64,000 nt of DNA from Oleiagrimonas citrea (lineage in GTDB: Bacteria; Pseudomonadota; Gammaproteobacteria; Xanthomonadales; Rhodanobacteraceae), in the NCBI RefSeq assembly GCF_012395255.1, contig NZ_JAAZQD010000002.1:453929-517928 (forward strand), in the 5' to 3' direction. The notes under the pieces were generated by a model. The model saw nothing but the letters and a program-made list of their open reading frames with translations, was not told where the DNA came from and did no database searches. Below are positions 930 through 43,200 of this stretch, in pieces. How positions within the stretch are numbered: the stretch's first letter is position 1; every line of letters starts with the position of its first letter. The position numbers and the translations under genes were made by a program.

Positions 930-1739
930 ATGTACGCCCAGTGCCCCGAATGCCTGACCGTCTTCTCGTTCGACGCCGAGACCGTCGCGCAGGCGCACGG
1001 CACCGTCGCGTGCGGCAAGTGCGGCGCGACCTTCGACTGCCTGCCGACACTGACCGAGCAGCTGCCCGAGGAAACCTACGAGACGCTGCCGGTGCACCCG
1101 TCCAGCCCGGCGCCGCCGGTGCTGATGATGAGCGTGGTGCGCGCCGGTCCCGAGGACGCCGTGCAGGCGCCGCTGTTCGCGCACGCACCGCCTGCCGCAG
1201 AAGACGAGGACGACGCACCCGCCGGCATGCCCTCGTTCGCACGGCTGCAGCGCCTGCCGCAACGCACGACGCACCGCGTGGGTCGCTGGGTGGCCGTCTG
1301 CGGCGCGCTGGCGCTGGTGCTCGCGGCGCAGCTGGTCTGGGCTGAACGCCGCCCGCTCACCGCCAACCCGAACACACGTCCCTGGATGCAGACCCTGTGC
1401 GGCTGGCTCGGCTGCACGCTGCCGCCGGTCGCCGACCTGAGCAAGCTGGAACTGATCTCGCGTGATGTGCGTCCGCATCCCTCGGTGCCGGGTGCGCTCA
1501 TCATCAGCGCCACGGTGCGCAACGATGCCTCGTTCACGCAGCCGTATCCGGTCGTCGCGATCACGCTCTCGGACCTGGACGGCAACCGCATCGCCATGCG
1601 CCGCTTCCGTCCCTCGGACTACCTCGACGACCCGGCGGCTCAATCCGCCGGCCTGGCCGCGGGCGCCAGTGCCTCGCTGGTATTCGAGGTAAAGGATCCC
1701 GGCAAGAAGGCCGTCGCCTTCGAGTTCAGCTTCCAGTAG
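930..1739 (+). CDS. zinc-ribbon domain protein (MJ0042-type, resembles the DUF3426 family)
   Basis: ATG at 930 follows a catacaat -10-like box. N-terminal CPEC..CGKC zinc ribbon, Pro-rich linker, one TM segment and a conserved C-terminal domain. Sits downstream of prmA. Confidence 0.65.
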   Translation: MYAQCPECLTVFSFDAETVAQAHGTVACGKCGATFDCLPTLTEQLPEETYETLPVHPSSPAPPVLMMSVVRAGPEDAVQAPLFAHAPPAAEDEDDAPAGMPSFARLQRLPQRTTHRVGRWVAVCGALALVLAAQLVWAERRPLTANPNTRPWMQTLCGWLGCTLPPVADLSKLELISRDVRPHPSVPGALIISATVRNDASFTQPYPVVAITLSDLDGNRIAMRRFRPSDYLDDPAAQSAGLAAGASASLVFEVKDPGKKAVAFEFSFQ

Positions 1740-2393: not shown

Positions 2394-3977
2394 ATGTTCG
2401 ACGCAACCCTGACCCCGGTCCGACGCGCGCTGCTCAGCGTCTCGAACAAGAACGGCCTGGCTGAACTGGCCAGCGGCCTGGACAAGCTGGGCGTCGAACT
2501 GATCTCCACCGGCGGCAGCGCGCGCGCGCTGCGCGATGCGCACCTGCCCGTGCGCGGCGTCAGCGAGATCACCGATTTCCCGGAGATCATGGACGGTCGC
2601 GTGAAGACGCTGCACCCGAAGATCCATGGCGGCCTGCTGGGTCGGCGTCACACCGACGACGCGGTGATGAGCGAGCACGGCATCGAGCCGATCGACCTGC
2701 TGGTGGTCAACCTGTACCCGTTCGCGCAGACCGTCGCGCGACCGGACTGCACCCTGGACGACGCCATCGAGAATATCGACATCGGCGGCCCGGCGATGCT
2801 GCGCGCGGCGGCGAAGAACCACGACCGCGTGCTGGTGGTAGTCGACCCGGCCGACTACGCCGAAGTCATCCAGACCCTGCACGAACACGGCGGCACCAGC
2901 ATCGCCCTGCGCCGCCGGCTCGCGGCCAAGGCCTTCGCCCACGCTGCGCAGTACGACGGCATGATCGCCGACTGGCTCGGCGCGCACACCGGCGAGGACG
3001 AGGAAGGCCCGTTCGCGCCGACCCTGCACATGGCGCTCGACCGCAAGGCCACGCTGCGCTACGGCGAGAACCCTCACCAGGGTGGCGCGCTGTACGTCGA
3101 GCGCGACGCACCCGCACAGGGCATCGTCGCCACCGCGAAGATCCTGGCCGGCAAGGAACTGTCCTACAACAACATCGCCGACGCCGACGCCGCGCTGGAA
3201 TGCGTGAAGGCGTTCCAGAACGTGCCGGCCTGCGTCATCGTCAAGCACGCCAACCCGTGCGGCGTGGCGCTGGGCGCGAACATCGCCGAAGCCTACGACC
3301 GCGCACACGCCTGCGATGCCACGTCGGCCTTCGGCGGCATCATCGCCTTCAATCAGCCGCTGGACGCCGACACCGCGCGCATGATCGTCGAGCGCCAGTT
3401 CGTCGAGGTGGTGCTGGCGCCGAGCATCCCGGCCGACACCCTGGCCGTGTTCGCCGACAAGCCCAATGTGCGCGTGCTGGACACCGGCGCGTGGCCGGAA
3501 CAGCCGGCCGCCACGCTGGACTACAAGCGCGTCGCCGGCGGCCTGCTGGTGCAGGACAGCGATCGCGACACCCTGCTGGCCGACGACCTGAAGGTGGTCA
3601 GCAAGCGCGTGCCCGACGCCGACGAACTGCGCGACCTGCTGTTTGCCTGGCACGTGGCGATGTACGTGAAATCCAACGCCATCGTCTACGCCAACAAGGG
3701 GCAGACCGTGGGCATCGGCGCCGGCCAGATGAGCCGCGTGATCTCCGCGCGCATCGCCGCGATCAAGGCCGCCGACGCCGGTCTGGATGTGCCCGGCAGC
3801 GTGATGGCCTCCGACGCCTTCTTCCCGTTCCGCGACGGCATCGACGCCGCCGCCGAAGCCGGCATCCGCGCCGTGATCCAGCCGGGCGGCTCGCGCCGCG
3901 ACGAGGAAGTCATCGCCGCCGCCGACGAGCACGGCATGGCGATGGTGTTCACCGGCATGCGCCACTTCCGCCACTGA
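2394..3977 (+). CDS. purH: bifunctional AICAR transformylase / IMP cyclohydrolase
   Basis: 528 aa from ATG 2394. N-terminal MGS-like/IMPCH domain and C-terminal AICARFT domain are collinear with PurH. High GC3. Confidence 0.92.
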
Positions 3978-4065
3978 TACGCAAGGCGCCCGGACAAGCC
4001 GGGCACCGATGCACTACACATTCTGTCCCGCCCCGGCTGCGCGCATGCGCTCCGGGGCGATGTCG

Positions 4066-4548
4066 TTACTGGCCGTCGCCAGCCTTCTTCTTGGCCGGAC
4101 CGCCCCACTGGTAGATCGTGTAGTAGACCGGCTTCACCGGCGGCTGGCCGGCCTGACGCTGCAACACGCCCTCGCTGTTGGCCATGTAGGTCTGCGGAAC
4201 GCCGTGGGCCGGAATCACGTGGATCATGTACAGCTTGCCGTTGATCCGGTACTCCTCGACCTTGTCCTTGCCCACAGTGCGCACGTCCACGGTCGGCGGC
4301 GGGTCACCGCGCAGGTCGCGCTGCGCGCCGCCACTGCCGACGGCCGGCAACTCGGGCAGACCGCGTAGGCCGCCCTTCTGCGCGCTCGACGCCGGCGCAG
4401 AGGCAGCCGGCGCGGCCTGCACGCCGGGATCGCTCATGCCCGGCGGCGGCGGCACCGGCGCGCGCTGATCCGCGTTCTGAGCCTGGACGGAGGCGCAGGC
4501 CAGCAGGGCCGTGGCACCGAGAACGAATAGCGTGGAATGACGTGACAT
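4066..4548 (-). CDS. secreted protein of unknown function (resembles DUF2782)
   Basis: Start [19 protein letters not shown] is a signal peptide. Pro-rich region, then a conserved ..[15 protein letters not shown].. core. Confidence 0.55.
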
Positions 4549-4628
4549 GGGCGCACCTCCTGAATGCAGGCACAGGATAGCAGCGACCCGGGTGCGCGAA
4601 CGTGAACGGGCCATGCGAGAATTCCCGC

Positions 4629-7388
4629 ATGGCTTCCATGATTCTGATCGACGGGTCCTCGTACCTGTATCGCGCGTTCCACGCGCTTCCGCCGCTGACC
4701 AACGCCGAGGGTGAACCCACCGGCGCCCTGTTCGGCGTGGTCAACATGCTGCGCGCCACGCTGAAGGCCGGCGCCGACTACGTCGCCTTCGTGCAGGACG
4801 CATCCGGCCCGACCTTCCGCGACGAGATGTACGACCAGTACAAGGCCAATCGTCCGCCGATGCCCGACGACCTGCGCGGCCAGATCCAGCCGATGCTGGA
4901 CATCGTCGAGGCGCAGGGTTTCCCGATCCTGCGCGTGCCCGGGGTCGAGGCCGACGACGTCATCGGCACCCTGGCGCGGCAGGCTGCGGACCAGGGCATC
5001 GAGGTAGTCATCTCCACCGGCGACAAGGATTTCGCGCAGCTGGTCGACCAGCACGTGACGCTGGTCAACACCATGACCAACACGCGCACCGACGAGGCTG
5101 GCGTGAAGGAGAAGTTCGGCGTCGCGCCCGAGCGCATCGTCGATTTCCTGGCGCTGACCGGCGACAAGGTCGACAACGTGCCCGGCGTGGACAAGTGCGG
5201 ACCCAAGACCGCCGCCAAGTGGCTGGACAAGTACGGCTCGCTGGAAAACCTGATGCAGCAGGCCGACGACGTCGGCGGCAAGATCGGCGAAAACCTGCGC
5301 GCGGCGCTGGACCATCTGCCGCTGTCGCGCGACCTGGTCACCATCAAGACCGACGTCGAGCTCGATGTCGGCCCGACCGATCTGGCGCTGCGCGAAGCCG
5401 ACGTCGAACGCCTGCGCGAGCTGTACACGCGCTATGACTTCCGCGCCGCACTGAAGGATCTGGACAACGGCGAGACCAAGGTCGAACCCTCGTCCGCTGC
5501 CGAGCAGGCCCCGGCCACGCAGACGCTGCGCGACGCCACCGAAGCACCTTCGGACGATGCGGCCCGCCCCGGCGAATACGAACTGGTCACGACCGAGGAA
5601 CAGCTGAAGGCCTGGGTCGAGCGCCTCGAACACGCCGACCTGATCGCCTTCGACACCGAGACCACCTCGCTCGACGCGCTGCGCGCCGAGATCGTCGGCG
5701 TGTCGCTGGCGGTGGAGCCGGGCAAGGCCGCCTATATCCCGGTCGCGCACGACTATCCTGGCGTACCAAAGCAGCTGGACCGCGCCACCGTGCTCGCGGC
5801 GCTGAAGCCGGCGCTGGAGGATCCGGAACGGCCGAAGGTCGCCCAGCACGGCAAGTACGACATCAACGTGCTGGCCAGCCATCTGCTCGGCGAGCACAAG
5901 GTCGAGGTGCGCGGACTGGCCCACGACACCATGCTCGAATCCTACGTGTGGAACGCCACCGCCACGCGCCACGACATGGATTCGCTGGCGTCGCGCTATC
6001 TCGGCTACACCACCACCAAGTACAGCGAGGTCGCCGGCAAGGGCGCCAAGCAGATCGGCTTCGCCGAGGTCGACCTGGACACCGCCGGCCACTACGCCGC
6101 CGAGGACGCCGACATCACCCTGCGCCTGCACCACGCGCTATGGCCGAAGCTCGAATCCGAGGCCGGTCTGAAGGCCGTCTACACCGATATCGAGATGCCG
6201 CTGGTGCCGGTGCTGGCGCGCATGGAAAAGCGCGGCGTGCTGATTGACGTCGACAACCTCAAGCACCAGAGCCAGGCGCTGGGCAAGCGCATGCTGGAGA
6301 TCCAGAAGCAGGCCTACGAGCACGCCGGCCGCGAATTCAATCTGGCCTCGACCAAGCAGCTGCAGGCCATCCTGTTCGACGAACTCGGCCTGCCGGTGAA
6401 GGTGAAGACCTCCAAGGGCGCGCCGTCGACCAACGAGGAAGCGCTCGACGCCATCGTCGACGAACACCCGCTGCCGCGCCTGATTCTGGACTACCGCGGT
6501 CTGGCCAAGCTGCGCTCGACCTACACCGACAAACTGGCGGAGATGGTCAACCCGGACACCGGCCGCGTGCACACCAGCTATCACCAGGCCGTGGCCGCGA
6601 CCGGCCGGCTGTCCTCGTCCGACCCCAACCTGCAGAACATTCCGGTGCGCACCGAGGAAGGTCGGCGCATCCGCCAAGCCTTCGTCGCGCCGAAGGGCTG
6701 GGTGGTGATGGCCGCCGACTATTCGCAGATCGAGCTGCGCATCATGGCGCACCTGTCCGGCGACGAAGGCCTGCTGAAAGCCTTCCGCGAAGGCGCCGAC
6801 ATCCACCGAGCCACCGCCGCCGAGGTCTTCGGCGTGCAGCCCGAGGAGGTCGACAGCAACCAGCGCCGCGCCGCCAAGGCCATCAACTTCGGCCTGATGT
6901 ACGGCATGAGCGCGTTCGGCCTGGCGCGCAACCTCGGCATCGACCGCGGCGAGGCGGCCGACTACATCGCCCGCTACTTCGCGCGCTACCCCGGCGTGCG
7001 CGAATTCATGGATCGCACCCGCGAGAAGGCGCACGAGACCGGCTTCGTGGAGACGCTGTTCGGCCGCCGCCTGTATCTGGACAATCTCAAGGCCCGCAAC
7101 CAGGCACTGCGCGCCGGCGCGGAGCGCGCCGCCATCAACGCGCCGATGCAGGGCACCGCCGCCGACATCATCAAGCGCGCCATGCTCACCGTCGACGCCT
7201 GGCTGATCGGCCGCGACGACGCCAGCATGCTGATGCAGGTGCACGATGAACTGGTGTTCGAGGTACGCGAAGATGCCGTCGAGGCGATCCGCGAAGGCGT
7301 GACCGAACGCATGCAGGGCGCGGCCGACCTGGCCGTACCGCTGATCGTCGAGGTCGGCGTCGGTGCGAACTGGGACGAGGCGCATTGA
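4629..7388 (+). CDS. polA: DNA polymerase I
   Basis: ~920 aa. 5'-3' exonuclease N-terminus (ILIDGSSYLYRAFHA), 3'-5' exonuclease and polymerase domains with the typical C-terminus (..QVHDELVFEV.., ..VGANWDEAH). The ORF-track start at 4602 is GTG. ATG 4629 is preferred. Confidence 0.93.
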   Translation: MASMILIDGSSYLYRAFHALPPLTNAEGEPTGALFGVVNMLRATLKAGADYVAFVQDASGPTFRDEMYDQYKANRPPMPDDLRGQIQPMLDIVEAQGFPILRVPGVEADDVIGTLARQAADQGIEVVISTGDKDFAQLVDQHVTLVNTMTNTRTDEAGVKEKFGVAPERIVDFLALTGDKVDNVPGVDKCGPKTAAKWLDKYGSLENLMQQADDVGGKIGENLRAALDHLPLSRDLVTIKTDVELDVGPTDLALREADVERLRELYTRYDFRAALKDLDNGETKVEPSSAAEQAPATQTLRDATEAPSDDAARPGEYELVTTEEQLKAWVERLEHADLIAFDTETTSLDALRAEIVGVSLAVEPGKAAYIPVAHDYPGVPKQLDRATVLAALKPALEDPERPKVAQHGKYDINVLASHLLGEHKVEVRGLAHDTMLESYVWNATATRHDMDSLASRYLGYTTTKYSEVAGKGAKQIGFAEVDLDTAGHYAAEDADITLRLHHALWPKLESEAGLKAVYTDIEMPLVPVLARMEKRGVLIDVDNLKHQSQALGKRMLEIQKQAYEHAGREFNLASTKQLQAILFDELGLPVKVKTSKGAPSTNEEALDAIVDEHPLPRLILDYRGLAKLRSTYTDKLAEMVNPDTGRVHTSYHQAVAATGRLSSSDPNLQNIPVRTEEGRRIRQAFVAPKGWVVMAADYSQIELRIMAHLSGDEGLLKAFREGADIHRATAAEVFGVQPEEVDSNQRRAAKAINFGLMYGMSAFGLARNLGIDRGEAADYIARYFARYPGVREFMDRTREKAHETGFVETLFGRRLYLDNLKARNQALRAGAERAAINAPMQGTAADIIKRAMLTVDAWLIGRDDASMLMQVHDELVFEVREDAVEAIREGVTERMQGAADLAVPLIVEVGVGANWDEAH

Positions 7389-10309: not shown

Positions 10310-10903
10310 TTAAGCATCGGAAGCAAGATGTGTGGCACAAATGCCTTGCTGGATGCCGGCCACTTGAAGATAGCGCTCTAAAGCAAAATTTTTGTGGCTA
10401 TTGAACCCCTCGGGAGCGAGTCCTTGACCGGAGGAGTACATGAGTCCCGCATATGGATCTGCATCGGCAGGGATATGAGGAACTGGGGCATGGCTGCTTT
10501 TACTCCCTTGAATGTACATAGCAACCCCACTGATAAGCCTTACCAACGCGATCCCATGCGCTCTGGCGAATTCAATTGCCCCATCTTGAAAAGGGGATGT
10601 GCTGACAAAAATTGCCTTACTTGCGCCCAGAGACTCTTGCTTTTGATGCAAGACTTGGACTAGCTCTCTTTTAATAGGGTTTTTGTGCTTTTTGCACTCA
10701 ACAAGCGTCTTAAACGAAATACCACCAAGTGCCTTGAAGCGAACCACAACATCTATCTCGTATTCACCGTCCGCACCACTAAGCTTTTCACGATGAACGG
10801 CTGAAAACGCTTCAAGTTCGTGTCCGACAGACTCAAGCCATGCTTTCACCTGAAGCTCGTACTCTTCAGGAGTGACGTCTGATGCGTTCTTAAATTTTTT
10901 CAT
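10310..10903 (-). CDS. Mrr-cat (type IV restriction endonuclease-like) domain protein
   Basis: 197 aa. The core ..EYEIDVVVRF..LVECKKHKNPI..AIFVSTSPF.. matches the Mrr catalytic domain (D-x-EVD...ECK). ~45% GC against ~68% background. Confidence 0.7.
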   Translation of the reverse strand: MKKFKNASDVTPEEYELQVKAWLESVGHELEAFSAVHREKLSGADGEYEIDVVVRFKALGGISFKTLVECKKHKNPIKRELVQVLHQKQESLGASKAIFVSTSPFQDGAIEFARAHGIALVRLISGVAMYIQGSKSSHAPVPHIPADADPYAGLMYSSGQGLAPEGFNSHKNFALERYLQVAGIQQGICATHLASDA

Positions 10904-10920
10904 TGCCTAGCGCGCGTAAC

Positions 10921-12186
10921 TCAAGCGTCACGCTCACCCGGCAACTGCGGCACGCCATGCGCATTGCGCAGTTCGGGATCGACCGTGAGCGCCACTTCAC
11001 GCACGGCGTGCGCGCCGGGCAGCGCTTCGGTGGCTTCACCGCGGGTCATGCGCAGGGCGTTGCGGTAGCACTGTTGGGCCAGCAGCGGGTTGCCCTGGCC
11101 GGCGTAGGTCTCGCCGAGGGTTTCCCAGGCTTCGGCCGACGGCTCCAGCGACAGCGCCTGCGACAGGTACTGGCGCGCCTTGCCCCACAGTTGGATGCGT
11201 ACGCACATGCGGCCCACTGCGGTCAGCAGGGTGGCGTCACCGGGATGCGCGTCGAGCCAGCCTTCGGCGCGGCGCAGGCGGCCCTCGATATCCTGTCCCT
11301 GCAGCTGTCCGTAGGCCGCCACCAGCGCCGGCGACCAGTTCCGGCGCAGCGCCGACTCGATTTCGTCCATGGCCGGAAGCGGCCGACCGAAGCGCGAGAC
11401 CTGCTCGGCGTAGGCCGCGATCAGTTCCGGCTGACGCCGCTGCGCGCGGGACAGGTCGGCCCACAGGGCGTGCAGCGCATCGACGCTCGGCGCGCGCTGC
11501 AGCGCGGCACGCACCACGCGAAGCTGCAGTGCGGCATAGGCTTCGGCATCCAGCGCGCCGCTCTTGCGAAGGGGGTCCAGCGCGCCGCGCGCGCGGTCGA
11601 CATCGCCGCGCTGCAGGGCGGATTCGGCCAGTTCCAGCCAGCCACCCGGCGGCAGGCGTCCCGCGTCCGCTTCCGGCGCCAGCAGCGCCAGCGCTTCCTC
11701 GGCGCGACCGTCCTCGCGCAGGATGCGCGCGCGCACCACGCGCGCGGCCTGCGGCGCGCTCTGTGTGGCCTGATCCAGCGCCTCCATCGCGCGCTTGATG
11801 TCACCGCGAGCATGCGCGGCCCGTGCCGCGGCCAACAGTGCCGGCGCGCGTTGCGGCGCATGACGCGCCGCGCGACCCAGGTCGCGTTCGGCTTCGCCAT
11901 GACGCCCCTCGGCGAGCGCCAGCAGACCATCGTGAAAACGCTTGCGGCTGACCGCGCGCTGCCGACGCGTGACGGCGCCGAACGGCCAGCGCAGCAGACG
12001 CCAGCCCAGCGAGATCACGCCCCAGAACACCAGCAGCAGCACGATCGCCGTGACCAGCGTCGACTGCACCCGCCAGCCACGGATGCGGATCAGCACCTGG
12101 CCCGGGTCCTCGGCGACCCAGTGCCAGCCGAAGGCCGTGATCGTGACCACGATCGCCAGCAGCAGCACCCAGCGCCAAACCTTCAT
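10921..12186 (-). CDS. hemY: heme biosynthesis-associated TPR protein HemY
   Basis: Two N-terminal TM helices then TPR-like repeats. Overlaps the hemX stop by 4 nt. hemD-hemX-hemY order is conserved. Confidence 0.8.
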   Translation of the reverse strand: MKVWRWVLLLAIVVTITAFGWHWVAEDPGQVLIRIRGWRVQSTLVTAIVLLLVFWGVISLGWRLLRWPFGAVTRRQRAVSRKRFHDGLLALAEGRHGEAERDLGRAARHAPQRAPALLAAARAAHARGDIKRAMEALDQATQSAPQAARVVRARILREDGRAEEALALLAPEADAGRLPPGGWLELAESALQRGDVDRARGALDPLRKSGALDAEAYAALQLRVVRAALQRAPSVDALHALWADLSRAQRRQPELIAAYAEQVSRFGRPLPAMDEIESALRRNWSPALVAAYGQLQGQDIEGRLRRAEGWLDAHPGDATLLTAVGRMCVRIQLWGKARQYLSQALSLEPSAEAWETLGETYAGQGNPLLAQQCYRNALRMTRGEATEALPGAHAVREVALTVDPELRNAHGVPQLPGERDA

Positions 12187-29435: not shown

Positions 29436-29674
29436 GGAAACTCCCTGACCTGCTGCGGACAGGTCCGACATCCCGATGCAACCAGGCCGCGCACACTCGC
29501 TTGCAGCACGACTCCGTCCGCATTCGGGGAAACCCGTCAAAAAAACCGTTCGCCCGAAGGGCCAACGGTCGTATAGATGCCATCAAGCAGGAAAAGGTTT
29601 GCACCCGCCACACGCGACCGCATTGCGATACGCGTCGCCGTCCAGGTCATTCTCTTATTTCCCAAGAAAACTCC

Positions 29675-29810
29675 CCCGGGGAGGCGTCGACAGCACCTCC
29701 TGTGCTGACAACGAACTGGCGCACATCCCTGTGCCCCCTGGAGGCCTGATCCCCCGCCCCCCGACGCTACCGAATGGGATGGAGTTGCAGACCCGGACCT
29801 CACGGCACGA
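29675..29810 (+). repeat. partial copy (A) of the island-associated structured repeat
   Basis: ~80% identical to the 3' half of copies B/C, including the cagcacctcctgtgctg hairpin and the ggcgcacatccctgtgc hairpin. Confidence 0.5.
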
Positions 29811-32907: not shown

Positions 32908-32980
32908 GCCAAAGAGCGGGACTCGAACCCGCAACCTACGGTTTATGAGACCGTTGCTCTACCCATTGAGCTATCGATAC
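32908..32980 (-). tRNA. tRNA-like element, anticodon loop CUCAUAA (CAU, Met/Ile2-type); acceptor stem does not pair, probable pseudo-tRNA
   Basis: Canonical D arm (TAGCTCAATGGGTAGAGC), anticodon stem-loop ACGGT-CTCATAA-ACCGT and T arm (GCGGG-TTCGAGT-CCCGC). The 5' acceptor strand (GTATCGA) cannot pair with the 3' strand (TCTTTGG). Confidence 0.4.
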
Positions 32981-33051
32981 AAAGGGCAGGAGTCGAACCT
33001 GCGACATCAGCAATCTGAATGCTGCGCTCTCCCAGACTGAGCTACCTTCAG
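32978..33051 (-). tRNA. tRNA-like element, anticodon CAG in a 7-nt loop, class-I length; acceptor stem weak (4 WC + 2 GU + 1 mismatch)
   Basis: Canonical D arm (TAGCTCAGTCTGGGAGAGC), anticodon stem-loop CAGCA-TTCAGAT-TGCTG and T arm (GCAGG-TTCGACT-CCTGC). Its 3' end overlaps the 5' end of the neighbouring element by 3 nt. Confidence 0.4.
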
Positions 33052-37376: not shown

Positions 37377-38450
37377 TTACTGCAGGAACACCGGCTGGAA
37401 CGAGAACACGTTCTTGCTGTCCGGGTCGACCGTCATCTCCACCCAGCTGTTGTCGGCGTTGCCGAACACTTCCACACGGGTGAAGTTCGGCTGGGTCTGG
37501 CCGTTGTCCTTCACCATCGCCTTGTCGACGCGGAAGTAGTGCGAATCGCCATGCACCAGTACCACCTGGCCGTCGAAGTTTTGGGTCTCGTCGATCATGG
37601 CGTGGAAGAAATCGGCGAAGCCGTTGTAGCTCGGGTCCAGCGTTGGCAGGAAGGTATCCTTGTAGTTGCCGTCGGCGACATCGATGCCGCCATACATATC
37701 CGCCTGAATAGCGATCACGACACCGGCCAGGTGCCGCTTCCTGGCCACGGCGAAGGCGTCCGCCAGCCACTGCAAGTTCGCGGCATTGCGCGCGCGGTAT
37801 TCGGCGGTGGCGGCGGCGCAATCGGCCGCGGTACGCATGGACTTCTTCGTGCACTCCTTGTCCGTAGCCACGAAGTTGTTGTTGCTGCCGATCACGTTGA
37901 GTGAAACAAACATCACGCGATCACGGATGAAGCGGCTGTTCTCGCTGTAGGCCTTCCCCGGTGCGCCCTGGCGATCGACCCGCATCGGATGCAGCCCCTG
38001 GCTGACGTTCTTGCTGAAGAACGTCTTGCGCAGGTAGGCGAGCCGTTCCAGCGGGTCGTAGCCGCCGTTGCTGGTGCGATGGCAGTCGGTCCATTCGTTG
38101 TCGCCCAGGCTGTAGATCGTCGGCGCATACACGCGGTCGAAGCGGTTGACCACATCCTGGCCAATGGCCTGATTGGTGCAGAGGCTGTGGCCGTTCTTGG
38201 TATCGCCGACGAAGATGGTGAAGTCCAGATCGTGGTCGTTCAGCGAGTCGATGGTCTGGTTTTCCTGCGCAGCCTGCACGGCCGGATCGTCGGCGTAGAA
38301 CTGATCGCCCCACAGCGCGACATGGATCTTGCCGTGATCGTGGTCATGGCCGTGTCCATGGCCGTGACCGTGGGCATGCGCGAACAGGGGCAGGGCCAGT
38401 GCGGCCGCCAGCATCACGACATTCAGCTTGCTTCGAGAAAGCATGGTCAT
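37377..38450 (-). CDS. secreted calcineurin-like metallophosphoesterase
   Basis: Signal peptide, (HG)n/(HD)n His-rich tract, phosphoesterase motifs GDTKNG and LGDNEW. Confidence 0.8.
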   Translation of the reverse strand: MTMLSRSKLNVVMLAAALALPLFAHAHGHGHGHGHDHDHGKIHVALWGDQFYADDPAVQAAQENQTIDSLNDHDLDFTIFVGDTKNGHSLCTNQAIGQDVVNRFDRVYAPTIYSLGDNEWTDCHRTSNGGYDPLERLAYLRKTFFSKNVSQGLHPMRVDRQGAPGKAYSENSRFIRDRVMFVSLNVIGSNNNFVATDKECTKKSMRTAADCAAATAEYRARNAANLQWLADAFAVARKRHLAGVVIAIQADMYGGIDVADGNYKDTFLPTLDPSYNGFADFFHAMIDETQNFDGQVVLVHGDSHYFRVDKAMVKDNGQTQPNFTRVEVFGNADNSWVEMTVDPDSKNVFSFQPVFLQ

Positions 38451-38574: not shown

Positions 38575-38945
38575 CGGCAGCGGGCGGCTCGTAGGGCGGA
38601 CACTGTCCGCCGCATTCCGCTGCGCTCCGTTTTCGAAGAGCGGTTCCGTCCGGCTGGCGCCGGTCGGGTCACTTCTATTGCTTGTCCAATAGAAGTAACC
38701 AAGACAAGGACACCCCAGCGTTCGCGCCCTACGCGCCTGCGGCGCTACGGGTCCGCTCCGGGCTCCGGGGGTTCGCCGACAGTACATCCTGTGCTGGCGA
38801 CGAACTGGCGCACGTCCCTGTGCGCCACCCTGCGGGCCTGATCCTCCACCCTCCGCCGCTACCGAAGGGGATAGGGTTGCACGCCGGAAGCTACGGCAGC
38901 ATTCACTTCAAACGGTTGTAAGTGAACCTGGAACCGTTATCACCT
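38575..38945 (+). repeat. island-associated structured repeat, copy B
   Basis: ~95% identical to copy C over ~370 bp. Contains perfect hairpins gtcacttctattgcttgtccaatagaagtaac and cagtacatcctgtgctg. Ends ..ggaaccgttatcacctgg. Confidence 0.7.
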
Positions 38946-39016: not shown

Positions 39017-40408
39017 CTATTCCACGGCAAAGGGACCAAATTCCTTGTAGTAACCGGTCTCTGGAATGTTTGCGCTCAGGGTGAGTTTTTTCTCTGCATC
39101 GACCTTGATCTTGATACGCACCATCAGTTTCCCAGCCGGACGCGGGGGAAGATTAGTCAGCACGGCATCAAAAAACTTTTTCGCTTCGCCCTCTCCCTTT
39201 TGTGCCAGCTGAATTTCCAATTCCTTCTGATTGGTCTCGGCGTTGGCAAAGGTGTCGGCGAACGTGACGGGAAGGCGGTGTGTCGCCGGAATCAGCGGAA
39301 AGAACTTGCCGCCCTGCGTCACGATACCGATCGTTTTCTTCAGGACCGGCGCGCGTGCCGCGGGCGCGGGTCTTGAAGAAGCTGCATCGCTTCGTGGTGG
39401 CCTGGACGCGGCGCGGACGTTTTCTTTCGGCTTCGTCCTGACTTTTGGACGGTCCAGGTGAACCGGCCCGATATCCTTTTCGGCGAGGGTGTTGACGTTG
39501 TAATTGGTGTACTTGTCCTTGGCCGTATCCACCAGGTATAGGCTGCCGGTGAGGATATTGTTTTTGTCCACCTTCAGCTTGACGCGCACTTCCAGCTCTC
39601 TTCCCGGTCGAAGACCAGGCCGACCATCAAACGTGGTCTCGTACAAGGTCCTCGATCCACCCTTGCCCCTTTCCGTGATTTGGACTTCGAGGGGCTTTTG
39701 GTCGTATTCGACACCCAATTTCCTTTCCCATTCCAGGGGAAGCCGCCGATCTGCCAAAATGGAACCCCGTCTCGTGCCGCCATACCCGGCCTGATGCACG
39801 GTAATGTCGATCGGCGACTTCAATACGGGACCAAATAATGCATTGGCCTCCAAGCAACTGCGGACGGGTATGGTCGGCCGATTCGGATCCGTCGCACAGC
39901 CCTGGTAGTAGTAATGGATGGCGTGTACGCATTTTTCCCGCTGTGCCATGAAACGTTGCCCTTGCGCGGAACAAGAGAACGTGGCATCCGCGTACTGCCC
40001 AGCCTCACCCACGAGCTGTCCCAGGGCCCCGCTCTTGGCCGGCTGTCCCGGCAACTTCGTGTTGAACCCCGGACAGGTGATCGCGACCCGCTCGGTGGTG
40101 GCATTGTTGGGCTTGCAGGCGCCGCCGGCCGGGGATTCGCGCCACACGTAGCGACAGACGTTATTGAAAATCGGCGGCGTGTTTCGCCGCGTGCAGGCGC
40201 CGAAGGCCTGGCAACCCTGCTTGGTGCCGACGCCCTGCGGACATTTCTCCCGGATATGACGGCACACCCCGACATCCATGCACAGACCCCCCAGGACCTT
40301 GCACTGCTTGACGGCGACCTCATATCGCCTCTGGCATGACATGTTGCCAGCCTGCGCGGTGACCGAGAGCAAGATCCCGGCCAGCAAGAATAGTTTCCTG
40401 AGCATCAT
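39017..40408 (-). CDS. secreted Cys-rich protein with two tandem Hsp70 (DnaK) substrate-binding-domain-beta-like repeats
   Basis: GGAGA RBS. Signal peptide MMLRKLFLLAGILLSVTAQA. ~20 Cys in the N-terminal ~200 aa. The C-terminal repeats align to the DnaK SBD-beta sandwich. ~58% GC. Confidence 0.65.
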   Translation of the reverse strand: MMLRKLFLLAGILLSVTAQAGNMSCQRRYEVAVKQCKVLGGLCMDVGVCRHIREKCPQGVGTKQGCQAFGACTRRNTPPIFNNVCRYVWRESPAGGACKPNNATTERVAITCPGFNTKLPGQPAKSGALGQLVGEAGQYADATFSCSAQGQRFMAQREKCVHAIHYYYQGCATDPNRPTIPVRSCLEANALFGPVLKSPIDITVHQAGYGGTRRGSILADRRLPLEWERKLGVEYDQKPLEVQITERGKGGSRTLYETTFDGRPGLRPGRELEVRVKLKVDKNNILTGSLYLVDTAKDKYTNYNVNTLAEKDIGPVHLDRPKVRTKPKENVRAASRPPRSDAASSRPAPAARAPVLKKTIGIVTQGGKFFPLIPATHRLPVTFADTFANAETNQKELEIQLAQKGEGEAKKFFDAVLTNLPPRPAGKLMVRIKIKVDAEKKLTLSANIPETGYYKEFGPFAVE

Positions 40409-40944
40409 GGTCTCCAGGCACATCATCGATCGAATGCTGCCGCCCCCGTGTCCTGTCGACGACCTCGCGCCCGCCCCACCGCAAAGGGGGCAAGAACGCT
40501 GCATTGGAAGCCACGCCGTCATGGCAAGGCCAGCGAAGAAGGGATCGTCGCCATGCTCCCCCGAGATGGCATACGCGAAGGTTCGTACGAACCCGTCCCC
40601 CTCCCCGAAGCGGTTGCCGGCGCATCGCGTGACCTGAAGACTGTGCGAGACACGCAACCCGGCCTGAAGCGAACCGTTCGGGCTTGAAGACCATCTTCCG
40701 GAAATCATTTTCCATATGCAAGACAGTCACTTGCATACTCAGCCTGAGGAGACGACCGCAGCATGGCCGATACATCCAACGCCGCTCCGTACCCATCCAG
40801 CGGCCCAAGAACAGTGCCGGGTACAGTCCCATACTCCATTCAATCGGGCGTAAGAGAACCTGGCCCCGTTCTTTGACGATGCCGCCTCATGATGCCTGCT
40901 GGACAGAGTGAGAGAATCGAAAGCATTTAATGCCCCCGACTCCT

Positions 40945-41345
40945 GTTGAAGGACGGCTCGTAAGGCGGGCACTGCGCGCTGTTTTCCGTTGCGTTTCATC
41001 TCTTAAGAGCGGTTCCGACCGGCTGGCGCCGGCCGGGTCACTTCTATTGCTTGTCCAATAGAAGTCACCAAGACAAGGACACCCCAGCGTCCGCGCCCTA
41101 CGCGCCTGCGGCGCTCCGGGTCCGCTCCGGGTTCCGGGGGTTCGTTGACAGCACCTCCTGTGCTGACGACGAACTGGCGCACATCCCTGTGCGCCACCCT
41201 ACGGGCCTGATCCTCCACCCTCCGCCGCTGCCGAAGGGGATAGGGTTGCACGCCGGAAGCCACTGCAGCATTCACTTCAAACGGTTGTAAGTGAACCTGG
41301 AACCGTTATCAACCGGAACCGTTATCAACCGAACCGTTATCCAGG
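40945..41345 (+). repeat. island-associated structured repeat, copy C (ends in 3x tandem ggaaccgttatca)
   Basis: Collinear with copy B. Hairpins are conserved with substitutions. The 3' end carries three tandem 13-bp units where B has one. Confidence 0.7.
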
Positions 41346-41455
41346 ACCATTGGGACTGCCCGCTCGGGAGATCCAGTTGCGTTAGGATTTGGCGAAGGGA
41401 ACGGGGTTAAAAGGTAATGCCGGCTCCCGTCCATGGTCGGACTAAGGGAATAACC

Positions 41456-42334
41456 ATGCCTGATACCGCAAGAATCCACATCCACGCCTTTCGAGTTTCG
41501 AAAACCGCCAACAGTGCTCACCTCGAAAATTTAATCGATAGGATCGGTCGCCACCGCCTAGAGGACCGAGTTAGGACAATCGTAACCTCCAGCGTCCGCA
41601 TTGAAAGGGTAACCACGAGGCACAACGATGCGCCTCGGGAGACCTACAAGCTAATGGACTTCGTGAGGTTTCGTGATACGCATGGTCCGGGGAAAGCGTC
41701 TCGCGATCACGCAGTTAGTGACTTCGATTTGGGTCCGGACGAATATTTCGGTGAGGAAACAGCGGCGCTCTACGTACCTGAATCGAGATGGCTGCTTGTC
41801 CAGTACAACCATTTTGGCGTTCGTCCGAATGCCATGGCGTCATATTTCAGTTACTTCGACCAACAGCAAACCAACTCTTATGAATTAAGCATCAAACTCG
41901 ACCCTGATGCTGAGCGGCGCTTCATGGAAACGAATGACGTCCGTCGCGTTGAGCTCGACCTAGATCTAACCCAGATGCGCGCGGCAGACAGGGATCGGGG
42001 GTTGGGACTTGGCACTGTTGCGCAATACGGCGCTAACCTCAACGGAGCCAAGCTGAAGCTTACCCTTTCCGTGGGCATGGACAGGAAACGTCGACTGGGC
42101 GGACAAGTTAAGGATGCCGTAACTGACATGATCCAGAACTCAGAAATGGTCACTGGGGCTCAAATCGCAGGGCGTGAGACCCCGGAAGGGCAAGTTGAGG
42201 TCATTGACCTGTTGGAAGAAAAGCTAACTGCGGAGGCCAGCATCACCATTGGCCCGGGTCGACGCTTAGACCAAGAGGAAAGATTCCGTGCCCTGATCTG
42301 GGCGCGTAACCACTGGAGAGACATCCTCAGATGA
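41456..42334 (+). CDS. hypothetical protein (292 aa), cassette gene 1 of the two-gene module
   Basis: AAGGGA RBS. ~52% GC. Soluble, no TM helices. No family I can name. Has an R-x4-H stretch (RFRDTH) and an acidic DFDLGPDE patch. Stop overlaps gene 2 (ATGA). Confidence 0.6.
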   Translation: MPDTARIHIHAFRVSKTANSAHLENLIDRIGRHRLEDRVRTIVTSSVRIERVTTRHNDAPRETYKLMDFVRFRDTHGPGKASRDHAVSDFDLGPDEYFGEETAALYVPESRWLLVQYNHFGVRPNAMASYFSYFDQQQTNSYELSIKLDPDAERRFMETNDVRRVELDLDLTQMRAADRDRGLGLGTVAQYGANLNGAKLKLTLSVGMDRKRRLGGQVKDAVTDMIQNSEMVTGAQIAGRETPEGQVEVIDLLEEKLTAEASITIGPGRRLDQEERFRALIWARNHWRDILR

Positions 42335-42756
42335 CCGAATTGCAGCGCGAACGCTTGTTCCCTTGGCTGTGGGGCGTATGCTCCGCAGCGGCGCTGCTCG
42401 TGGGTCACTATGTCTGGGGGCTCCAGATGCCTACCGGCGATTCGTACAAGTCTGCGCTCTTGACCTTGGGTGGAATATTCGCGGGCTTTATGGCGACCTT
42501 GACCGCGTTGTTGTATTCGATGCGAGACGAGACATTCGAACGACTGCGAGATTCCAAGTACCTCAAAGATCTTCTGGATTACCTCCATGAGGCTCTATGG
42601 TCCAGCTTGCTGCTGTGCTTTGTTACGTGGGTATCGTTCTGGGTGCCCGATTCGTGCTGGTTCCTTCAAGTGGTCTTGGGGGGCCTCGCAGTCTTTACCA
42701 TGGCTGCCATATTCAGGATTGCGAAGATCGCTAGTTCGTTGCTGGCTGACAGATAG
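42331..42756 (+). CDS. small 4-TM membrane protein (141 aa), cassette gene 2
   Basis: Four hydrophobic helices (LFPWLWGVCSAAALLVGHYVWGL, ALLTLGGIFAGFMATLTALLY, LLLCFVTWVSFWV, FLQVVLGGLAVFTMAAIF). Translationally coupled to gene 1. Followed by an aaaggccgcccc-gag-gggtggccttt hairpin. Confidence 0.6.
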   Translation: MTELQRERLFPWLWGVCSAAALLVGHYVWGLQMPTGDSYKSALLTLGGIFAGFMATLTALLYSMRDETFERLRDSKYLKDLLDYLHEALWSSLLLCFVTWVSFWVPDSCWFLQVVLGGLAVFTMAAIFRIAKIASSLLADR

Positions 42757-42849
42757 CTTTCTGACACAAAGTTGATCCGGACTTTCCGTACAGATGTCCG
42801 TACAACGACAAAGGCCGCCCCGAGGGGTGGCCTTTGTCATAGCGTTCAT

Positions 42850-42899
42850 TGGTGGGCGGTACAAGGATCGAACTTGTGACACCTGCCGTGTGAAGGAAG
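42850..42899 (-). other. tRNA 3'-end fragment with encoded CCA (att-site-like integration scar)
   Basis: Reverse complement reads ..CTTCACACGGCAGGTGTC-ACAAG-TTCGATC-CTTGT-ACCGCCC-A-CCA. That is a perfect T arm, 7-nt acceptor 3' strand, discriminator and CCA. No matching 5' half or D arm upstream. Confidence 0.6.
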
Positions 42900-42914: not shown

Positions 42915-43200
42915 ACGGGGTAGTTAGCTCGTGCCGTAACGTGCCGGTTTACGCCTCCCCTTCGATAGCGGCGGAGGGTGGAGGATCAGGCCCGCAGGGT
43001 GGCGCACAGGGATGTGCGCCAGTTCGTCGTCAGGTCAGGATGACCTGTCGACGAACCCCCGGAACCCGGAGCGGACCTGGAGGCCCGAAGGGCCGGAAGG
43101 CGCGGACGTTGGGGCGCCCTTCTTTGGTTCCTTTCTTGGGCGAACAAGAAAGGAACCCAGCCGGCGCCAGCCGGTCGGAACCGCTCTTCATCGAAGTCAT
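42915..43200 (-). repeat. island-associated structured repeat, copy D (inverted orientation, more diverged)
   Basis: Reverse complement is collinear with B/C. Hairpin 1 is replaced by a different perfect hairpin ggttcctttcttgttcgcccaagaaaggaacc, hairpin 2 by caggtcatcctgacctg. Confidence 0.65.

Follow-up and report, generated by a model that had tools for sequence, protein, structure and literature searches.

What kind of module is the small cassette of low G+C content that lies beside gltD in Oleiagrimonas citrea? The cassette consists of two overlapping genes at positions 41456 to 42756 of the window, the 64,000-nucleotide stretch of contig NZ_JAAZQD010000002.1 that was analysed here, and the original prediction, made from the DNA alone, had proposed that it was an undescribed defence or abortive-infection module. 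RexAB is the founding and oldest known abortive-infection system. Our results suggest that the pair is probably a RexAB-type abortive-infection or phage-exclusion module of foreign origin, left over from a small integrative islet or prophage. The basis of this reading is the conservation of the pair, the fold match of the first protein, the remote similarity and topology of the second, and the mobile and defence contexts in which the relatives are found. Thus, the idea of a defence module stood in part: the pair is indeed an acquired soluble plus four-helix membrane pair, with a structural match to RexA, a remote similarity to RexB and relatives in suitable contexts. It is not an undescribed kind of module, because its architecture is that of RexAB and because the first protein already belongs to a catalogued family, DUF6731, and weakly matches the PADLOC candidate PDC-M67A. 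Most likely, the pair is a highly divergent RexAB-type system that falls outside the lambda RexA and RexB Pfam families, and the kind of module is already known.

As predicted, the cassette contains two overlapping open reading frames (ORFs) of 292 and 141 amino acids (aa), both on the plus strand. Gene 1 (41456 to 42334) encodes a soluble DUF6731 protein, which is RexA-like and the predicted sensor or activator, and gene 2 (42331 to 42756) encodes a RexB-like inner-membrane protein with four transmembrane (TM) helices, the predicted effector. The longest ORF of gene 1 runs from 41417 to 42334. Within it, the ATG at 41456, which yields the 292-aa product, was preferred as the start because a Shine-Dalgarno-like AAGGGA, read from the sequence (41444 to 41449, plus strand), lies 6 nucleotides 5' of it and because the aligned homologues begin at the equivalent residue. 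Note that the public annotation of gene 1 is a 226-aa protein (P0001; 77% coverage, matched stretch 41654 to 42334) that lacks approximately 66 N-terminal residues, including positions that the family conserves (R38 and R48, for example); the start in the public record was probably mis-called. The ATG of gene 2 shares bases with the TGA stop codon of gene 1, and through this ATGA overlap gene 2 is predicted to be translationally coupled to gene 1. In a promoter scan, the region upstream of gene 1 showed no sigma-70 consensus.

Both ORFs are real genes, since the many homologues of each conserve the full-length protein while the DNA differs. The G+C contents originally given for the pair and for the window (52% and 68%) were roughly right, the measured values being 0.543 and 0.666. 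Moreover, the G+C content at third codon positions is 0.59 and 0.70 in the two genes, compared to 0.89 in the neighbouring gltB. Since the pair falls below the window and gltB in these measures, the cassette is compositionally foreign.

The two genes occur together throughout the family. At every locus examined (approximately 40 distinct loci), a DUF6731 gene is directly followed by a homologous four-TM ORF of ~136 to 172 aa, and at the genome loci the two genes overlap or lie within ~11 nucleotides of each other. This was the case for 19 of 19 GTDB genome loci, 16 of 16 IMG/VR contigs, all the contigs fetched by protein identity and two Bacillota plasmids (with a frameshifted partner in one of them), so that the pair spans the alpha-, beta- and gamma-Proteobacteria and the Bacillota. 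Both here and in the relatives, the arrangement is that of RexAB-type systems, in which the gene of a soluble protein (~280 to 370 aa) precedes, in the same orientation, a four-TM gene (~140 to 165 aa). The closest homologues are found in Rhodanobacter (66% identity) and on a metagenome contig (61%); since both sit in unrelated contexts, this locus is not a conserved site of the pair.

In some public contigs, the partner gene was overlooked by gene callers, though clearly present, at positions 3593 to 4048 of locus L067 and 10897 to 11343 of locus L069. The partner family is therefore under-annotated, and Pfam has no model for it. Likewise, on the B. thuringiensis plasmid pHS18-8 (L108, ~3972 to 4700) the four-TM partner is unannotated and appears split over two frames, by either a frameshift or a sequencing error.

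Gene 1 had been described as a protein without an assignable domain, a statement that did not survive the profile searches. It is a member of the Pfam family DUF6731 (PF20505; E 1.9e-29, profile positions 28 to 278 of 295), with a score of 103.6 bits that is above the gathering threshold of 27 bits, and it also matches phrog_10865. A word-indexed search returned 76 homologues, all DUF6731, and an exhaustive profile search against 1.84 billion cluster representatives returned 2,524 relatives at E<=1e-3 and 418 at E<=1e-30. The alignment revealed three invariant family motifs: F-x-R-x-R-x-x-HGPGK, FGEETAxLY and QYNHxGVR.

The predicted structure of gene 1 matches the alpha/beta fold of lambda RexA. 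In the model, beta-rich parts (residues 4 to 146 and 248 to 286) enclose an inserted domain of ~90 residues (150 to 240) that contains three strands and four helices. In RexA itself, a dimerisation domain with four strands and four helices splits the globular domain, and the protein is unexpectedly homologous to RdgC (PMC11077077); the order of the modelled secondary-structure elements of gene 1 fits this architecture. RdgC, a recombination-associated DNA-binding protein, is a much weaker match to gene 1; its gene is of the housekeeping type and comes without a membrane partner. The earlier suggestion that the RFRDTH stretch of gene 1 could be the R-x4-H motif of a HEPN domain was rejected for two reasons: the predicted fold is alpha/beta and RexA-like, not a helical HEPN bundle, and RFRDTH is part of a different conserved motif, F-x-R-x-R-x-x-HGPGK, in which it forms the end of a beta-strand and the loop that follows.

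Next, we analysed gene 2. The four TM helices that had been proposed for it were recovered both by hydropathy and in the AlphaFold2 (AF2) model, at residues 3 to 29, 37 to 63, 76 to 102 and 110 to 139, and the AF2 model adds a short loop helix at residues 66 to 73. The lysine plus arginine counts are 2, 0, 5, 0 and 3 for the N-terminus, loops 1, 2 and 3, and the C-terminus, respectively. Positive charge is concentrated at both termini and in the TM2-TM3 loop, from which gene 2 is predicted to be N-in/C-in. The TM2-TM3 cytoplasmic loop is also where the conservation of the gene 2 family is strongest (L-[RK]-x-x-G-Y-[ILM]), so that gene 2 combines the predicted N-in/C-in topology with the conserved central loop of the RexAB type. 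For comparison, lambda RexB has 144 aa (gene 2 has 141), four TM helices and, at the collinear position, the loop ...IREYGYM....

A word-indexed search found just 5 homologues of gene 2, and a similarity to RexB was seen at the level of the family. Alignment of the gene 2 family (27 members) with an 18-member RexB alignment by hhalign gave an E-value of 1.5e-4 over the full length (116 collinear columns), with a probability of 52%. The PADLOC RexB model matched 7 of the 27 family members (best E 6e-5), and the Pfam RexB model (PF15968) matched one of them (E 0.006). In a reciprocal hidden Markov model test, scores of at least 15 bits were reached by 7 of the 27 real sequences, by none of 540 topology-preserving block shuffles and by none of the 27 reversed sequences, which reached at most 3.4 bits. 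The gene 2 family thus appears remotely similar to lambda RexB, and this similarity is weak but controlled. In a Foldseek comparison with the viral structures of BFVD, the best match of the gene 2 model (TM-score 0.69, E 0.07) was a protein of 165 aa from mycobacteriophage Sbash, whose Rex-like pair gp30/gp31 is validated; the matched protein may be gp31. Moreover, the uncultured phage ctylc9 gave the best or second-best viral structural match for the models of both genes, which is consistent with the pair being present in ctylc9 as well.

The contexts of the relatives point to mobile elements and defence loci. Relatives were found on 16 IMG/VR prophage contigs, and in one Mu-like prophage (L106) the order on one strand is CI-like repressor, Zn-ribbon gene and then the pair, divergent from ner, MuA and MuB. 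This order resembles that of cI-rexA-rexB in lambda and the arrangement of RexABpp in Pseudomonas putida. Other relatives lie in islets with a P4-type integrase, one of them also with a type I restriction-modification (R-M) system; one adjoins a SEFIR/TIR protein and Fic; on a Niallia plasmid the pair is beside a type I R-M system; and on an 8-kb B. thuringiensis plasmid a TIR protein is two genes away from it. In some relatives, the pair forms a minimal two-gene islet between housekeeping genes. When 145 ORFs flanking the relatives were pooled and scanned with Pfam, most matches were to XRE-type helix-turn-helix (HTH) proteins, serine recombinases and Mu or P2 phage proteins. No gene 1 homologue was found by tblastn in the isolate phage genomes of INPHARED, although PHROGs and IMG/VR contain them.

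These contexts also bear on a different function, in which the pair would serve the maintenance or lifecycle of a mobile element, either through a RexA-like protein that binds DNA and, with its membrane partner, modulates a lysis-lysogeny switch, or in superinfection exclusion at the step of DNA entry. According to PMC11077077, lambda RexA binds to DNA and, without the need for RexB, biases the bistable switch; and, as just described, the pair is near a CI-like repressor in one Mu-like prophage and XRE-type HTH genes recur nearby. Many copies, however, including that of the window, stand alone as islets in which there is no prophage or repressor for them to regulate, and the pair recurs beside R-M and TIR genes (two genes away in one case). 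We therefore consider this function unlikely, and return to the RexAB-type defence module.

Several results weigh against a RexAB-type assignment. The link between gene 1 and RexA was not detected by any sequence method. Neither Pfam RexA (PF15969) nor DUF4747 matched any of 25 gene 1 family members at E<=10; the PADLOC RexA model matched neither gene 1 nor its family; a search of the gene 1 profile against the PDB sequences gave nothing relevant; and hhalign compared the family with lambda RexA and with a five-sequence RexA alignment at an E-value of 0.4. A scan of IMG/VR intended to broaden the RexA profile added no new sequences. As a control, lambda RexA matched the RexA models at 1e-96 and 1e-108. 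Moreover, the invariant polar motifs of the gene 1 family (HGPGK, FGEETA and QYNHxGVR) are absent from lambda RexA and could mean a different biochemical activity. As to gene 2, the window's own protein matched none of the RexB models, the matches being at family level only, and the hhalign probability of just 52% has to be read in the light of the proneness of TM proteins to spurious similarity. In the window, no phage, repressor or integrase genes are found near the pair, whose neighbours are miscellaneous accessory genes. Finally, the literature searched contained no functional data on any DUF6731 protein and no paper on DUF6731 or PDC-M67, or on a tie of either to Rex.

The same undetectable sequence similarity between gene 1 and RexA is what would be seen if the two genes were an unrelated pair of membrane toxin and regulator, toxin-antitoxin-like or holin-like, that had come to resemble RexAB by convergence. 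Moreover, the structure of small membrane proteins with four helices is generic, and the Foldseek E-values of gene 2 were 0.07 or worse. We regard convergence as improbable.

How would a RexAB-type module work here? The model that we propose is drawn by analogy from lambda RexAB, Sbash gp30/gp31, CarolAnn gp44/gp43 and P. putida RexABpp. The gene 1 product would be a cytoplasmic RexA-fold protein, probably dimeric and possibly a DNA-binding clamp, that senses a cue from the infecting phage. Once activated, it would engage the gene 2 product at the conserved central loop in the cytoplasm; this product is a four-TM inner-membrane protein predicted to oligomerise into a channel or pore. Opening of this pore would then collapse the membrane potential and ATP, arrest growth and abort the infection. 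The ATGA overlap, with its translational coupling, would set the A:B ratio, a stoichiometry that matters in both lambda and P. putida (PMC12894663). Sensing, the A-B interaction, channel activity and protection are all inferred from these analogues.

We also compared the pair with the characterised systems. With respect to lambda RexA and RexB, sequence similarity of the A component is undetectable and the DUF6731 proteins have their own invariant motifs. In addition, lambda RexAB is part of the immunity region, whereas the pair in the window is a stand-alone islet beside gltD, and the DUF6731 family is taxonomically far broader than the RexAB found in this analysis, which was enterobacterial. 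Sbash gp30/gp31 and CarolAnn gp44/gp43 are likewise two-gene Rex-like defences with a four-TM effector whose central cytoplasmic loop is essential. Sbash gp31 and RexB are like gene 2 in their reported size, their four TM helices and their N-in/C-in topology, and the gp31 mutations that abolish defence fall in the TM2-TM3 loop, which is the conservation peak of the gene 2 family. In contrast, the A components of Sbash and CarolAnn have 370 to 372 aa and a DUF4747 motif that is undetected in gene 1, and their hosts are Actinobacteria.

RexABpp, from P. putida prophage P1 (PP_5643/PP_5644; PMC12894663), differs in its A component as well: the validated RexApp, at 37.5 kDa with its tag, is larger than the gene 1 product (~33 kDa) and nearer in size to the 328-position PDC-M67A profile. 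The termini of RexApp deduced from the primers (VHRTATFV..., ...VYNKQSRLMV) are unlike those of DUF6731 proteins, and the ends of the PP_5643 gene rebuilt from the published primers had no match in IMG/VR.

The pair gp30/gp31 of mycobacteriophage Butters, a soluble plus four-TM Rex-like pair that is also carried on a prophage, has the roles reversed (PMC12894663). If the window pair worked by this logic, toxicity or antiviral action would reside in the soluble protein, and the role of the membrane protein would be only to sequester it until infection sets it free. The two-gene architecture fits equally, and the conserved polar motifs of gene 1 could form an active site instead of a sensor surface. 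We give the reversed arrangement a low probability and prefer a RexAB-type module with gene 2 as its effector.

The PADLOC candidate system PDC-M67 was compared as well. Gene 1 matches PDC-M67A partially and weakly (E 1.4e-7, ~80 of the 328 profile positions), and so do 23 of 25 members of its family (~1e-8, over ~80 positions). PDC-M67B did not match gene 2 of the window and matched one of 27 gene 2 family members at 0.024. Full-length matches to both A and B are absent, and PADLOC would not assign the window pair to PDC-M67. Judged from these profiles, PDC-M67 is probably a sister two-gene family.

The likeness to CBASS (cyclic oligonucleotide-based antiphage signalling system), Pycsar (pyrimidine cyclase system for antiphage resistance) and Kiwa that had been put forward for the pair found no backing. 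The profile searches and Foldseek comparisons that the original prediction called for yielded DUF6731, the weak PDC-M67A match and the RexA-like fold, and no match to a cyclase, CBASS, Pycsar or Kiwa model. Specifically, no cyclase model matched gene 1, and PycTM matched one partner at E 0.11 only. For Kiwa, KwaA, KwaB and DUF4868 were without match in PADLOC and Pfam, and the gene order is the opposite one.

A broader proposal can be made tentatively. DUF6731 proteins with their obligate four-TM partners may form an unrecognised, cross-phylum RexAB-type clade (~2,500 clusters at 50% identity), whose A component would carry an invariant polar pocket (R..HGPGK, FGEETA, QYNHxGVR). If so, the sensing or catalytic chemistry of A would differ from that of every Rex system characterised so far, and might involve an enzymatic step or the binding of a ligand or nucleotide. 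Rex-like immunity would then be among the commoner two-gene abortive-infection designs rather than a handful of phage curiosities; in the literature searched, only five Rex-like systems are counted (PMC12894663). The current Pfam and PADLOC models of RexA and RexB recognise close lambda relatives only. The link between DUF6731 and RexAB would give a function to ~2,500 protein clusters and add a family missed by defence annotation, and diverse A/B pairs with a conserved loop and conserved pocket residues could help to explain how RexA senses infection and gates RexB.

We then turned to the surroundings of the pair in the window. The pair was correctly placed between two copies of a repeat, the second of which is inverted. 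Copy C (~41000 to 41305, plus strand) is a structured element directly 5' of gene 1 and in the same orientation, and copy D (~42950 to 43195, minus strand) is the same element just 3' of the gltD stop codon (43227). Further copies lie at 38582 to 38931 and 29676 to 29789 (38630 to 38935 and 29640 to 29800, both on the plus strand, when delimited as the multi-hairpin element), and metagenome copies were found in contigs L073 (115 to 360, plus strand; 1262 to 1472, minus strand) and L074 (80 to 275, plus strand). The repeat is a multi-hairpin element of ~240 nucleotides with covariation, as analysed in the four window and three metagenome copies, whose consensus has 56 pairs in seven helices. 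Standard pairs occupy 95.7% of the cells of this consensus. Double-sided pair changes occur in 17 cells, compared to 6.9 +/- 1.9 in shuffles (none of 500 reached 17), and the covariation score is 0.148, compared to <=0.05 in the slid controls. Five compensated versions of one hairpin were seen, and the G-U pairs place the structure on the plus strand in copies B and C and on the minus strand in copy D.

The element has no Rfam match, even at E<=1, and a first metagenome scan, with its 22-mer core, returned nothing. Contig L073 shows a layout like that of copies C and D around the pair: a cassette of ~900 bp, containing a single small ORF of low G+C content, lies between two inverted copies. 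From these features, the element may be a novel structured RNA or a cassette-flanking element of the MITE (miniature inverted-repeat transposable element) type. Between copy C and gene 1 there are three tandem 16-mers (AACCGGAACCGTTATC; 41294 to 41341, plus strand; Tandem Repeats Finder score 80), one unit of which is the normal 3' end of the element, as in copy B. These 16-mers are possibly binding sites, of a recombinase or of a regulator. A short tandem repeat also adjoins the element on L073, where it is seen as the repeated peptide NGTEAIN in the ORF translation.

On the other side of the pair, the tRNA 3'-end fragment that had been placed ~100 bp downstream was found 94 nucleotides past the gene 2 stop codon, on the minus strand (42850 to 42887; GGCAGGTGTCACAAGTTCGATCCTTGTACCGCCCACCA). 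It comprises the variable region, the T arm (stem ACAAG/CTTGT, loop TTCGATC), the 3' strand of the acceptor stem and CCA. The window holds no full-length counterpart, and the related islets showed no consistent tRNA linkage. The fragment is likely the attachment-site relic of an integrative element, and since the window contains no integrase or phage gene we read it as what is left of a decayed islet. For O. citrea, this would account for the low-GC islet beside gltBD, as the defence relic that an integrative element left behind. Between gene 2 and the fragment lies a GC-rich hairpin (AAAGGCCGCCCC/GGGGTGGCCTTT; 42807 to 42838, strand not assigned), identified by its inverted match to itself and from the sequence. 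It is likely the terminator of the tRNA remnant and possibly that of the operon; the terminator scan made no call there.

The decay of the element, with no integrase or phage genes left and just the tRNA 3' fragment to mark it, together with the missing sigma-70-like promoter, could suggest that the pair too is a non-functional relic in this genome, which we hold to be very improbable, since both ORFs are intact and full length, keep all the invariant family residues and are still coupled through ATGA, with a good Shine-Dalgarno sequence.

Finally, some neighbouring features deserve mention. The ORF at 37377 to 38450 (minus strand) encodes 357 aa, in which a signal-like segment at the N-terminus precedes a His-rich run (HAHGHGHGHGHDHDHG), and had no Pfam match at E<=1e-3. 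Between repeat copies B and C, a low-GC ORF (0.585; 39017 to 40708, minus strand) encodes a protein that has an apparent signal peptide and, in two segments, a weak likeness to the substrate-binding domain of Hsp70 (Pfam HSP70 E 3.8e-5, residues 459 to 551). A tRNA-Leu(CAG) at 32978 to 33051 (minus strand) was called by both ARAGORN and Rfam, and a second tRNA at 32914 to 32975 (minus strand), which may be truncated, was called by Rfam only (model positions 6 to 65). Both tRNAs (32914 to 33051) lie inside a long region of lowered G+C content that extends over ~26 to 43 kb of the window.

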